Of a stretch of DNA of 64,000 bases, positions 39,887-47,553 are shown one piece after another. The stretch is from Syntrophales bacterium (GTDB taxonomy: Bacteria; Desulfobacterota; Syntrophia; Syntrophales; PHBD01): contig OY764159.1 of assembly GCA_963668175.1 (NCBI GenBank), positions 1,536,001 to 1,600,000 of the forward strand, in the 5' to 3' direction. Every line of letters begins with the position of its first letter. Within the stretch, counting starts at the first letter, position 1. The notes beneath the pieces were generated by a model. It saw nothing but the letters and a program-made list of their open reading frames with translations, did no database searches and was not told the DNA's origin. Made by a program: the position numbers and the translations under genes.

Positions 39887-41191
39887 TTATGCCGTTTTTT
39901 CCTCGGCGATTCTCTTTCTGACGATCGGCCGCAAGACAAAAAGGGCCAGGATGCACGCCGTGATGTCGAAAATAGCGGAGATATAATAGGGAACCTCAAA
40001 CGAACCGGCGTAATAAGCTGCAACCAGGGCCGCGCCATAACCGGCCAGGATGGACGCCATGCCTTTGGCCGTGTAGAGAATGCCGTAGTTGCCGGAGGCA
40101 TTCTTGGCTCCGAAAACGTCGCCCGTGAGGGCCGAGAAGAGCGCGTAAATCTCGCCCCAGGCCAGGAAGACAAAGGGCAGCAGGATGACGAAGGCGACCG
40201 GGCTTCCCATGATCTGCGTCATGAGGAAGATGAGGACGCCCTCCAGGCCGAAGGCGAAGGCCATGGTGTATTCCCTCCCGAATCTGTCGGATACCGCCCC
40301 CCACATGATCCTCGCGAATGCGTTGGTGACGCCGGCGATGGTCGCCGTGAACGGAACGATCGCGATGCCGAGGATCTTGGCGTCGAAGACGTTCAGGGAT
40401 TTGGCGATCTGGGAAAGGTTGCCGGTGGTCATCAGGCCGCCGGTGCAGACCATGAGGAACATGAAGTACATGATGTAGAATTCTTTTTTCGTGAGCATCT
40501 GCGTCCAGGTGTAGTTGACCTTGGTCTGGATAACGGCCTTGGGCGCCACCCATCCTGCCGGTTGCCAGCCGCCGGGGGGATGGCGCAGGATCAGGGCCAT
40601 GGCGATGGCCACGACGCCCTGGCCGAGGCCCCAGGCGGTCATGGCGCCCGCCCAGCCCAGGGCTTTAATCGTGGCGGCGACGGGGATGAGCGTCAGGGCC
40701 GAGCCGCCCCCGAAGCCGGCAGCCGTGAGCCCTGCCGCCAGGCCCCGCTTGTCCGGGAACCATTTGACGGCGTTGGCCACCGTGGCGATATAAATGATGC
40801 CTGCACCGGTACCGGCGATGAGACCGTAGTAGATATAGAGTTCATTGACTGTCGTGGCGACAGTGCCTCCCAGGACCCATCCCAGGAGGATGCCCGTGGC
40901 GCCTACCAGCATGAGGTTACGGATGCCGAACTTATCGATAAAGTATCCGGCGACGGGGACGGGCCACGTTTCGAAGAGAATAAACAGGGTGTAAATCAGG
41001 GCGATTTTTGCATAGGGAACATCGGCAAATTGCTGCTTCAATCCAGGGGTGAAAAGAGTGAAGGCGTATTGAAAGTTCGAAATAACGATCATCGCCATAA
41101 CGCCGGCTGCGAGCTGAATCCATCGATTGCCGACGAATGATCCGTAGGTTTGCTTAGCGAGGTCTACTTGAGCAATGCTCTCGTTTGACAT
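39887..41191 (-). CDS. oxlT: oxalate:formate antiporter-family MFS transporter
   Basis: 12-TM MFS; KWFPDKRGLA, NAFARIMWGAVSDRFGR and NYGILYTAK carry the Arg and Lys equivalent to the OxlT substrate-binding residues. Confidence 0.85.
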   Translation of the reverse strand: MSNESIAQVDLAKQTYGSFVGNRWIQLAAGVMAMIVISNFQYAFTLFTPGLKQQFADVPYAKIALIYTLFILFETWPVPVAGYFIDKFGIRNLMLVGATGILLGWVLGGTVATTVNELYIYYGLIAGTGAGIIYIATVANAVKWFPDKRGLAAGLTAAGFGGGSALTLIPVAATIKALGWAGAMTAWGLGQGVVAIAMALILRHPPGGWQPAGWVAPKAVIQTKVNYTWTQMLTKKEFYIMYFMFLMVCTGGLMTTGNLSQIAKSLNVFDAKILGIAIVPFTATIAGVTNAFARIMWGAVSDRFGREYTMAFAFGLEGVLIFLMTQIMGSPVAFVILLPFVFLAWGEIYALFSALTGDVFGAKNASGNYGILYTAKGMASILAGYGAALVAAYYAGSFEVPYYISAIFDITACILALFVLRPIVRKRIAEEKTA

Positions 41192-41301
41192 TTCTCCTCC
41201 TCCTTTCAACAACTTTAAAAGAACTCTGCCTCACCCGGGGAAACGCCCGCTGCGCGAGCGGGGCGTTCCCTCCGGCTGCGGCAGCTTACCGCCTGGTTGC
41301 G

Positions 41302-42300
41302 TTACTTCGATCGTTTTGCTTTCGGTTTCGGAGTAGGAATCGGCGCTTCAACTGCAACCGCTTTAATTTTCTGAATCTTTTCGTCCACAAAGGCCTGCAT
41401 CTTGGCGATGTGTTCCGGCTGGAGATGGGAGAACCTCCCCTGGAACTTCATGTAATCGCCAACCGGCTTGTAGGTTTTCGGGAGACGGGAATATTTATAG
41501 GTCCCGTTTTCCCATTCGTAGAGCGTCCACATGCCGGTCTCCACGGCCAGCCTGCCCATTTCCAGCGACAGCTTCTCGTCGAACTTCCAACCCTTCGGAC
41601 AGGGCGACAGCATGTGCAGGAAGGAGGGACCGTCGTAGTTGAGGGCCTTGCGGACCTTGTTCATGAGGTCCACCGGGTAGGAGATGCAGGTCGTGGCGAC
41701 GTATTTCACCAGGGGATGCCCGCCGATGACGAGCTGGGGCGGGTCCTTGGGGAAGAGCGTCTTGCCTTCGGGTATTTCCTTGCCCGGAGGCGTGAAGGTC
41801 GTATTGGCCCCGTACGGGGTCGTCGGCGACGTCTGGATGCCTGTGTTGGCATAAGACTCGTTGTCGTAACAGATGAAAAGCACGTCGTGCCCGCGGTACA
41901 TCATGGCCGACATGGCCTGCAGGCCGATATCCACCGAGCCGCCGTCGCCCGCCATGACGATGATGTTGGGGAAGGGGCCGTCGTATTTCTTCTTGCGGGC
42001 CAGGATCTTGAAGGCCGCTTCGATCCCCGATCCCACGGCGCCGCCGTTCGTGATCTGGGAATGGATCCACGATACGGCATAGGGCGTGCACAGGTAGCTC
42101 GAATTCGCCACGTACATACAGCCTGTCGGGCCGATGAATATCGTGTTCTGCCCCGCCGCCTTGGCGACAAGACGGTAGTTGAGGGCCGGACCGCAACCGG
42201 CGCATGTCCTGTGGCCGGGCACGTACATCTCTTCCCGGGGTGCGCTGCGCAGCGATTTGATCGGCTCCAGGTACTGTTTTTTATAATCAAAGGCTTGCAT
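41302..42300 (-). CDS. oorB: oxalate oxidoreductase-type beta subunit (TPP-binding)
   Basis: [17 protein letters not shown]...[14 protein letters not shown]. Confidence 0.85.
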
Positions 42301-42326
42301 ATTTTATCACCTCCTTATAGGTCCTG

Positions 42327-43520
42327 TTATGCTTCATCCTCAAACCCAACCCAGTAGACCTTCTGACGCACCTTCTTCTCCTTGATCATCTGCTGGAGGA
42401 TTTTCGCCATGTAGTAGAAGTCGTCGAGAAGGATCACGTCGCCGCCGAGGCCCGCCATGAACGACGTCAGAAGCGGTCTCTTTTCGAGATCGTACAGGGA
42501 GGCGCTCACCTCGTGGATCAGGTTGCCGCCCCGGGTGGCACCGCCGTAGGACGTGCTGGTCTCGACGGTGGCGATCGCCTTGACATGGGCGAGGGCTTCC
42601 ATGATCTGCTGGGTCGGCCAGGGCCTGATCCAGCGCGGCCGCACCATGCCGGCCTTAAGACCCTGCTTCCGCAACTGGCGGATGGCCGCTTTACACGTAT
42701 TGGCATGGGCTCCCTGGATGAAAAAGGCCACTTCGGCATCCTTCATTTCGTACTGTTCCAGGTACGGATCGATCTTCCGGCCGAAGATCTTGTTGTAATC
42801 GGCGACGGCCTGTTCGATGACCTTGGGCACTTCGAGGAAGGTCATGGCCCGCTGGGCGTCCATGGGCGCGCCCTGGTCCGGCCTGATCTGCGGTCCGTGG
42901 GAAACTGGGCAAGTCGGGCTCAGGGGGTGAGGAGCGCTGTAAGGAGGCAGAAATTCCCGGACCTGCGACAGTTCGGGGAGGACAACCTTATCCGGGATGT
43001 GGGAAAGGAAATACCCGTCCTGGCAGACGAACTGGGGCAGCATGATACGGGGGTCCTCTCCGACGCGGAAATTGATGAGCGTGTTATCGAAGACTTCCTG
43101 GGGGGTCGAGGCCCATCCCATCAGCCAGCCCTGGTCCCGGGCCGACATGCAGTCGGTGTGTTCCGATCCGAAGTCGCCGGGCGGGTCGAGGGTCCGGTCC
43201 GCAATGGCCATCTGCAGGGGATAACGGCCGCCGGCCGCCGGGCTGTAAACTTCAAAGGCATACGTGACGCCGACGCCGGAACTTCCCGTATAGGCACGGG
43301 CGCCGGCGGCGGATGCGCCCAGAACGACCGAAACCTGGGCGTGTTCACCTTCGCCGTGGATGAACTCGGCGTTGAGTTCTCCGTTGGCGACCATTTTAGA
43401 AAGCTCCATCATGATAGCCGTGTAGGGACGAATCGGGTAGGAGCAGATGACTTCCACTTCCGCGAATTTGGCCCCTTGCGCCGCCGCTGCACAGCCGCTG
43501 AGTAAATATTCTTTAGCCAT
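42327..43520 (-). CDS. oorA: oxalate oxidoreductase-type alpha subunit
   Basis: SYPIRPYT (Arg where PFOR has YPITP), GEGEH, DRTLDPPGDFG; RBS AGGAGG before ATG 43520. Confidence 0.88.
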   Translation of the reverse strand: MAKEYLLSGCAAAAQGAKFAEVEVICSYPIRPYTAIMMELSKMVANGELNAEFIHGEGEHAQVSVVLGASAAGARAYTGSSGVGVTYAFEVYSPAAGGRYPLQMAIADRTLDPPGDFGSEHTDCMSARDQGWLMGWASTPQEVFDNTLINFRVGEDPRIMLPQFVCQDGYFLSHIPDKVVLPELSQVREFLPPYSAPHPLSPTCPVSHGPQIRPDQGAPMDAQRAMTFLEVPKVIEQAVADYNKIFGRKIDPYLEQYEMKDAEVAFFIQGAHANTCKAAIRQLRKQGLKAGMVRPRWIRPWPTQQIMEALAHVKAIATVETSTSYGGATRGGNLIHEVSASLYDLEKRPLLTSFMAGLGGDVILLDDFYYMAKILQQMIKEKKVRQKVYWVGFEDEA

Positions 43521-47475: not shown

Positions 47476-47492
47476 GACGTTACCGGAAGGGG

Positions 47493-47523
47493 GATTGTAT
47501 AATCATCAGATGATTGTACGATC
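47493..47523. promoter_or_regulatory. 31-bp palindromic operator (FadR/LutR-type TCATC-N-GATGA core)
   Basis: GATTGTATAATCATC-A-GATGATTGTACGATC, arms match 13/15. Confidence 0.75.
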
Positions 47524-47525
47524 GA

Positions 47526-47553
47526 ACATTACCAGCATTGCCGGATTTGTCAA
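47526..47553 (-). promoter_or_regulatory. sigma-70 promoter of the AAA-GntR-oor locus
   Basis: Minus-strand TTGACA-16-TAATGT with TGn extended -10. Confidence 0.65.

Follow-up and report, generated by a model that had tools for sequence, protein, structure and literature searches.

The 64,000-nucleotide stretch considered here (the window) belongs to a Syntrophales bacterium (assembly GCA_963668175.1, contig OY764159.1, positions 1,536,001 to 1,600,000), and its minus strand carries a real, complete and, to judge by the sequence, probably functional operon for the oxidation of oxalate by an oxalate oxidoreductase (Oor). Seven intact open reading frames follow one another, beginning with a Cdc48/VAT-type double AAA+ ATPase of 712 residues (45337..47475; Pfam CDC48_N, CDC48_2 and two AAA domains) and a FadR-subfamily GntR regulator of 237 residues (44630..45343; Pfam GntR and FCD). 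Then come the four Oor subunits, namely gamma (domain III, 212 residues, 43916..44554), delta (a ferredoxin domain with two [4Fe-4S] clusters, 109 residues, 43537..43866, with an alternative ATG at 43884), alpha (397 residues, 42327..43520) and beta (which holds thiamine pyrophosphate (TPP) and the proximal [4Fe-4S] cluster, 332 residues, 41302..42300), and finally a major facilitator superfamily (MFS) carrier of the OxlT family, 434 residues long (39887..41191). The intergenic gaps, taken in order from the ATPase gene through oxlT, are -7, 75, 49, 16, 26 and 110 bp, and the GC content of the locus (58.7%) is near that of the genome (55.8%). A preliminary description of this DNA had given the same seven-gene order with gaps of at most 110 bp, and in this it was accurate; it overlooked an accessory gene on the same strand, an NAD-dependent epimerase of the extended short-chain dehydrogenase type (313 residues, 38830..39771, Pfam Epimerase), which starts 115 bp past oxlT, with a terminator-like hairpin in between (39796..39836, minus strand; an 18-pair stem and a T tail, a consensus match only).

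The identity of the enzyme is the best supported element of this picture. All four subunits find their best structural match in the Oor of Moorella thermoacetica (EC 1.2.7.10; PDB 5C4I, 5EXD and 5EXE; NCBIfam NF045790-2): alpha scores 501 bits against 5c4i_A versus 206 against PFOR, beta 513 bits against 5c4i_C versus 252, gamma 205 bits against 5c4i_B versus 49 for the second-best match, and delta 90 bits against residues 226-315 of 5c4i_B versus 63 against PFOR delta. The NCBIfam models for alpha (NF045791, 561 with a cut-off of 500) and gamma (NF045790, 236 with a cut-off of 230) are both passed; delta by itself cannot attain the cut-off of the fused gamma-delta model. The motifs YPIRP and RTLDPPGDFG reported earlier for alpha are indeed there, and alignments read by hand show that alpha retains R31, E59, R109, D116, F117 and Q211 (Moorella numbering, 5c4i_A), that N152 of beta corresponds to Moorella N143, and that E147 of gamma corresponds to Moorella E154, the glutamate whose loop in domain III blocks the coenzyme A (CoA) site. 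The TPP motif of beta, its proximal-cluster cysteines and the two ferredoxin clusters of delta are all present, and every Fe-S cysteine is shared with the Moorella enzyme. According to PMC5020499, YPIRP, R31 and D116 are unique to Oor and CoA is not required; likewise R31, D116, E154 and N143 are given as catalytic-site residues in PMC12654022, and Oor is named as the CoA-free exception in PMC12337175.

These features extend to the relatives of the locus. A scan of GTDB, which reached close relatives only, returned 84 relatives, of which 80 loci were kept; R31, D116 and Q211 occur in 65 of 65 near-full-length alphas (15 of the 80 loci were dropped as partial or frameshifted), the four cysteines and the asparagine of beta in 68 of 68 aligned rows, and the gamma motif SG[ST]EG in 71 of 71. 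In seven loci (L036, L037, L065, L069, L076, L077 and L079) alpha is split by apparent frameshifts, which are probably assembly errors. Four-subunit PFOR and VOR enzymes (PorABDG, e.g. PDB 9BT4) share the gamma-delta-alpha-beta architecture and the fold family, but they are CoA-dependent, carry YPIT rather than YPIR and lack D116, as do all four alpha paralogs of this genome, and the scores of alpha, beta and gamma to them are less than half of those to Oor. In a quickly built tree with 49 rows, a branch with 99% SH-aLRT support sets the R31/D116 alphas apart from the PFOR/VOR type. A sister alpha group (P0139, P0142, P0147) shares R31, but its residue 116 is Ala or Asn (RALDDPG-x-F); its members may act on a different dicarboxylic substrate. 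Two points count against the assignment, namely that beta falls narrowly below its NCBIfam cut-off (NF045792, 570 against 590) and that the alpha tree holds no Moorella row, closeness to Moorella being judged from HMMER scores; a cluster look-up with ten distant representatives also returned no Moorella protein. The organisation differs too, since Moorella has three genes with gamma and delta fused, whereas here, and as separate matches across the related loci, gamma and delta are distinct reading frames. The Moorella oor cluster presumably also lies near an MFS gene, a GntR regulator and an AAA ATPase. On this evidence there is little doubt that the enzyme is an Oor orthologue, as the preliminary description had held.

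Transcription of the operon would start from a promoter with a -35 box TTGACA (47548..47553, minus strand) and a weak extended -10 at about 47531-47526, immediately 3' of which lies the palindrome AATCATCTGATGATT (47501..47515) with 7-bp arms. A sigma-70 scan omitted this promoter, the scan total being at chance level (4 matches versus 3.4 expected). Among 40 upstream regions of Cdc48 orthologues, TTGAC(A/T) is found in 35 (7.7% in shuffles), the palindromic core TSRTCWGAYS, a pattern derived from the very regions in which it was counted, also in 35 (0.25% in shuffles), and both elements at similar spacing in 34 (none in shuffles). Because TTGACA and the palindrome are co-conserved in these 34 regions we accept the promoter despite the scan, so that the promoter and operator proposed earlier hold up as conserved elements, the former without a listing by the sigma-70 scan. 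The palindrome is the only site in the genome within one mismatch, a FadR homologue is present at 63 of the 80 loci, and the element is probably a FadR/GntR site; we take it to resemble the operators of PdhR and LldR.

The carrier passes the oxalate/formate antiporter model (TIGR04259, 385 with a cut-off of 335), and its best PDB match is OxlT (8hpj), in a hand-read alignment with which R294 corresponds to Arg272 and K376 to Lys355. This Arg/Lys pair, to which the preliminary description had already drawn attention, is found in 34 of 34 carrier rows. With the virtual proton pump OxlT of Oxalobacter formigenes the carrier thus shares its family and the equivalents of Q34, Y35, T38, Y124, R272, W324, Y328 and K355; it is set apart by the changes Y150 to F160, W352 to Y373, Q63 to I71, Q66 to E74 and G326 to E347. 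The first two are conservative changes in the aromatic cage, at positions which according to PMC10070484, a source on the roles of OxlT residues, are needed for transport in the Oxalobacter protein. The acidic residues E74 and E347, which stand where Oxalobacter OxlT has Gln and Gly, are possible protonation sites; they are wholly or partly common to the OxlT of aerobic soil Proteobacteria (three compared), and it is this subtype that the carrier resembles, with 39-43% identity to the OxlT of Azospirillum, Burkholderia and Paracoccus. An OxlT-like carrier occurs at 38 of the 80 loci, as the only candidate in 35 and together with TctABC in 3, while TctABC alone is present in 26 and neither in 16, nine of these at a contig edge. 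Tct systems are binding-protein-dependent importers. Since they can take the place of the carrier, the conserved task of this slot would be uptake.

The first gene of the operon is also one of its most constant members. A Cdc48 homologue is present at 65 of the 80 loci, 10 of the 15 others having less than 4 kb of upstream DNA, and all 13 Oor-positive genomes of the order contain a Cdc48 orthologue of at least 64% identity, one of them partial. The protein scores 771 bits against TIGR01243, below the cut-off of 803, and has intact Walker A and B motifs, aromatic pore loops and Arg fingers in both AAA rings. It thus shares with archaeal VAT and eukaryotic Cdc48-p97 the N domain and two intact rings with aromatic pore loops, but unlike these it is tied to a metabolic operon. 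The C-termini of 53 long homologues inspected by eye are variable and have no common tail of the HbYX type. Because the gene is linked to Oor, the ATPase and pore motifs are intact and Oor reportedly suffers suicide inactivation by pyruvate (so the title of one paper), a maintenance role suggests itself, and the ATPase probably assembles or repairs Oor.

The host genome consists of one contig (4.57 Mb) and is 100% complete. The closest alphas (90-92%) are in records that carry the label Syntrophales or Syntrophaceae, the Oor matches in the order coincide with loci so labelled, and in a RecA tree of 13 rows the host falls with its order and away from Syntrophobacter, Desulfatibia and Nitrospirota; the earlier placement of the host as Syntrophales-like is very likely right. 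Within the order Oor is patchy, with matches above cut-off in 13 of 277 genomes and in none of 8 relatives of the host's own family; three further drafts, out of five tested, carry a gamma orthologue. The 80 loci span Syntrophales, Syntrophorhabdales, Syntrophobacter, other Desulfobacterota, Nitrospirota, Methylomirabilota, Myxococcota and Betaproteobacteria. A protein search gave 1051 proteins with E <1e-100 among 8000 candidates; some homologues already bear the name oxalate oxidoreductase, given by NCBI or JGI, and NCBI names Syntrophales proteins 'oxalate oxidoreductase subunit alpha'. A plasmid search found no Oor orthologue, the best match being 33% identical. Five Betaproteobacterial loci (L038, L047, L050, L053 and L069) have neither an OxlT-like carrier nor TctABC nearby, and among 49 Oor-bearing genomes oxc-like matches are confined to these five, over cut-off in 2 of the 49 and in 0 of the 13 within the order; in three Betaproteobacterial loci an NfnA-like gene adjoins Oor.

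Whatever the means of uptake, oxidation of oxalate by Oor provides no substrate-level ATP step, and energy would have to be conserved downstream. In this context the genome encodes a sulfite reduction pathway (DsrABCD/MKJOP), with dsrA, dsrB, DsrK, DsrM and DsrP over cut-off and DsrC and DsrD also present; between dsrC and dsrMKJOP there is a further DsrK-like gene, accompanied by a membrane partner (L091:8367-10894, minus strand). Since aprA is absent, the host is not a sulfate reducer. Dsr-bearing Syntrophales are known, according to PMC10591310, as the uncultured DsrAB lineage 6. The genome further contains an HdrA-MvhD-HdrCB-Flx-like and NfnAB-like cluster, several 2-oxoacid oxidoreductases, and three kinds of hydrogenase, namely a trimeric group A FeFe enzyme, a cytoplasmic NiFe-NuoEF complex and a periplasmic NiFe-cytochrome b enzyme. 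The cytoplasmic NiFe hydrogenase (L095:8714-16649, minus strand) is encoded with NuoE, a thioredoxin-like subunit, a NuoF-GltD fusion and a NuoG-like subunit, a cluster that we take to resemble the electron-bifurcating NiFe hydrogenases. TauE/SafE genes, present in 10-14 loci, were considered as a link to sulfite and rejected, since one also follows oxlT in Azospirillum.

From formation energies and constants we computed that conversion of oxalate to H2 and 2 HCO3- yields -25.3 kJ/mol at standard state (-22 to -39 under four conditions tried), conversion to formate -26.7 kJ/mol and oxidation with sulfite about -83 kJ per oxalate, the E0' of the CO2/oxalate couple being about -0.59 V. The preliminary description had proposed a syntrophic oxalotrophy; since oxalate breakdown releases energy at standard state even when no partner takes part, with H2 or with formate as the product, it is not obligately syntrophic, and any link to methanogens would be cross-feeding.

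The explanation that we favour, and hold to be slightly more likely than not as a whole chain, is an inducible uptake of oxalate and its oxidation with transfer of the electrons to ferredoxin, from which sulfite respiration would drain them. FadR would sit on the palindrome behind the promoter and let go in the presence of oxalate or a related acid, the OxlT-like carrier would take up oxalate with no need of exchange for formate, and the four-subunit TPP/[4Fe-4S] enzyme would, by analogy with Moorella Oor, convert oxalate to 2 CO2 without CoA and reduce ferredoxin. Electrons from ferredoxin could then reach sulfite via DsrAB and DsrC, either directly or through HdrABC-Flx and Nfn, while quinone would supply DsrMKJOP, possibly with H2 shuttling between the hydrogenases of the cytoplasm and the periplasmic NiFe-cytochrome b enzyme; in the absence of the acceptor the electrons would go to H2.

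The distribution of the two systems is consistent with such a coupling. Within the order dsrA is found in 11 of the 13 Oor-positive genomes (13 of 16 when the three gamma-bearing drafts are counted) and in 73 of the 264 Oor-negative ones (Fisher p 5e-5, or p 4e-4 with stratification by family); dsrA also occurs in 31 of 50 Oor-bearing genomes reached through the loci, and of these 31 there are 9 with an aprA match and 22 without. Against the proposed chain, however, several points have to be set. In the counts just given kin are not independent, and bigger or more complete genomes may hold more of both genes; 19 of the 50 genomes, drafts of unstated completeness, have no dsrA match, and in the host's family dsrA is present in 6 of the 8 relatives, none of which has Oor. 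No dsr gene, formate dehydrogenase or hydrogenase is among the top 45 families shared by the 80 loci, a comparison made with a gene filter that may miss short or atypical genes, and since no dsr family is among the shared neighbours the link between Oor and Dsr is not a physical one. The genome has no RnfC and no NuoD/Ech, so that a step from ferredoxin to quinone is not directly evident. Nor was a source of sulfite found, AprA and glycyl-radical enzymes both being absent. A Tat-exported PhsA-like molybdoenzyme (L143:422-3001, plus strand), matched weakly at 177 bits against a cut-off of 694, is a candidate thiosulfate or sulfoxide reductase that might supply it.

One alternative, which we consider unlikely though of some weight, is a fermentation of oxalate to H2, in which oxalate would enter electrogenically (by uniport or with one H+) and a cytoplasmic hydrogenase would consume two protons, creating a virtual proton pump without formate; the H2 could cross-feed methanogens, with no thermodynamic need for the partner. 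The trimeric FeFe hydrogenase and the cytoplasmic NiFe-NuoEF complex, the favourable energy of the reaction (-25 kJ/mol standard), the possible protonation sites at E74 and E347 and the existence of Oor-bearing genomes without dsrA would all suit this arrangement. Yet these hydrogenases look NADH-linked, and oxalate alone supplies no NADH; the margin is only about one proton per oxalate, and residues of the E74/E347 type also occur in the OxlT of aerobes. Moreover, organisms using TctABC would, given the properties of that family, spend rather than gain ion motive force on uptake.

Rather improbable, and compatible with sulfite-coupled oxalate oxidation rather than exclusive of it, is the idea that Oor serves as a side supply of ferredoxin of very low potential, on which biosynthesis and CO2 fixation (PFOR, CODH/ACS, Nfn) would draw while the cell grows on other substrates, oxalate being a co-substrate only. 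The E0' calculated above for the CO2/oxalate couple, the presence of CODH/ACS and several 2-oxoacid oxidoreductases in a genome with no Rnf or Ech to reduce ferredoxin, and the patchy occurrence of the module across unrelated phyla point in this direction. The dedicated regulator and the high-affinity importers, in contrast, suit catabolism, and Moorella is said, in the title of a 2010 paper by Pierce, to grow on oxalate with Oor, for which a table entry in PMC13409138 can also be adduced.

The model of the preliminary description, in which CO2 is reduced to formate in the cytoplasm and exchanged electrogenically for oxalate, the formate then being eaten by methanogens, has in our estimate little chance of being correct. 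It can draw on the antiporter model passed by the carrier, on the conservation of most OxlT binding residues, and on proposals that give OxlT-type carriers of syntrophs a part in exporting formate or in conserving energy (PMC12008871, PMC5606693); moreover CODH/ACS and FTHFS, both encoded here, could yield formate from acetate oxidation. But in this complete single-contig genome the enzymes are missing. No cytoplasmic FdhF-type formate dehydrogenase exceeds the TIGR01591 cut-off or 30% identity to either of two FdhF queries (this recheck was made after a PF00384 search had missed one Tat-exported molybdoenzyme), the best matches (30%) being a periplasmic FdnG and two molybdoenzymes. All three formate dehydrogenases are Tat-exported selenocysteine FdnGHI enzymes, no Pfl-like or glycyl-radical enzyme is encoded, and Oxc and Frc are both below cut-off. 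Among the genes that the preliminary description had singled out for a genome-wide search, hydrogenases are therefore present and oxc and frc are not, while formate dehydrogenase is represented by the exported type alone. Since no cytoplasmic FdhF-type enzyme was found, a formate loop lacks its enzyme here, and Oxalobacter differs in this respect as well, since it uses Oxc and Frc, neither of which the host possesses, and Oor yields no formate. The use of TctABC in place of the carrier at 26 of the 80 loci, with both at only 3, and the replacement of Y150 and W352 by F and Y point the same way; formate antiport and syntrophy are probably wrong for this organism. For other members of the order the model keeps some plausibility, since 11 of the 12 other Oor-bearing genomes have an FdhF-type enzyme over cut-off.

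Acetogenesis of the Moorella type was likewise set low, because the methyl branch of that pathway depends on formate in the cytoplasm and no formate dehydrogenase of this compartment was found. Moorella is an acetogen, whereas the host, with CODH/ACS, FTHFS and a Dsr pathway and without a cytoplasmic formate dehydrogenase, is not a canonical one. Some ten CoA-transferase family III paralogs are scattered through the genome, none of them over the Frc cut-off, and a single reading frame of 1158 residues (L132:10958-14434, plus strand) joins acetyl-CoA synthase to AcsD, the small subunit of the corrinoid protein. It is highly improbable, finally, that the true substrate of Oor is another small acid (glyoxylate, oxamate or mesoxalate) fed by the epimerase-like gene or by nearby FAD oxidases, for although such an epimerase homologue is present at 32 of the 80 loci and a GlcD-like FAD oxidase at 7, and although only one member of the Oor family is known to have been assayed, every checkable active-site residue is identical to that of Moorella Oor and invariant across the clade, and the carrier retains its dianion-binding Arg/Lys pair throughout.

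The surroundings of the operon may be described briefly. For the epimerase a look-up in the Atlas clusters gave generic epimerase clusters only and no specific function. Convergent with it is a molybdopterin oxidoreductase that is encoded by two genes and belongs to the xanthine/isoquinoline oxidoreductase type (36041-38727, plus strand), which is not among the families common to Oor loci, and on the other side of the operon (47842-50706, minus strand) lies a phosphoenolpyruvate synthase whose C-terminus is extended by a histone H1-like (HC2) tail, about 150 residues long and made up of repeats.

Oor is not new as an enzyme, and a structure and family models exist for it already; the new interest lies in its spread through oxc-lacking lineages of soil, peat and groundwater and in its constant Cdc48 partner. 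A search of the open-access literature, which did not extend to the primary Oor papers and supplements, found no description of Oor in Syntrophales or of its coupling to sulfite reduction. Oxalate turnover is surveyed by the marker genes oxc, frc and oxlT (PMC12551280); a 2024 review lists oxc, frc, oxlT and oxdC, with Oor not among the markers in its accessible text (PMC13409138), and a gut survey excluded Oor for want of information (PMC8062136). The available parts of PMC12008871 and PMC5606693 treat OxlT-type carriers in syntroph energetics and name no oxalate-degrading enzyme, the word oxalate is absent from the main text of a peatland genome paper whose site name matches two of the loci, and a paper on Lake Towuti does not, in its accessible text, discuss oxalate as a substrate. 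Since oxc passes its cut-off in no more than 2 of 49 Oor-bearing genomes, organisms with Oor are invisible to such marker surveys.

Oxalate is an abundant product of plants and fungi. A tentative and, taken as a whole, doubtful extension of our results would be that a mobile Oor system, composed of the operator, FadR, Cdc48, the four-subunit Oor and either OxlT or TctABC, marks an overlooked guild of anaerobes that oxidise oxalate in the Desulfobacterota, Nitrospirota, Methylomirabilota and Myxococcota of peat, soil and groundwater, coupled to sulfite in Syntrophales and with Cdc48 as a dedicated activase rescuing Oor from inactivation. The R31/D116 motif provides a clean marker for Oor, and the locus offers a testable native client for a bacterial Cdc48. 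If the proposed coupling is true, oxalate in anoxic environments would be converted directly to CO2 by sulfite reducers, and its electrons would be diverted from methane.

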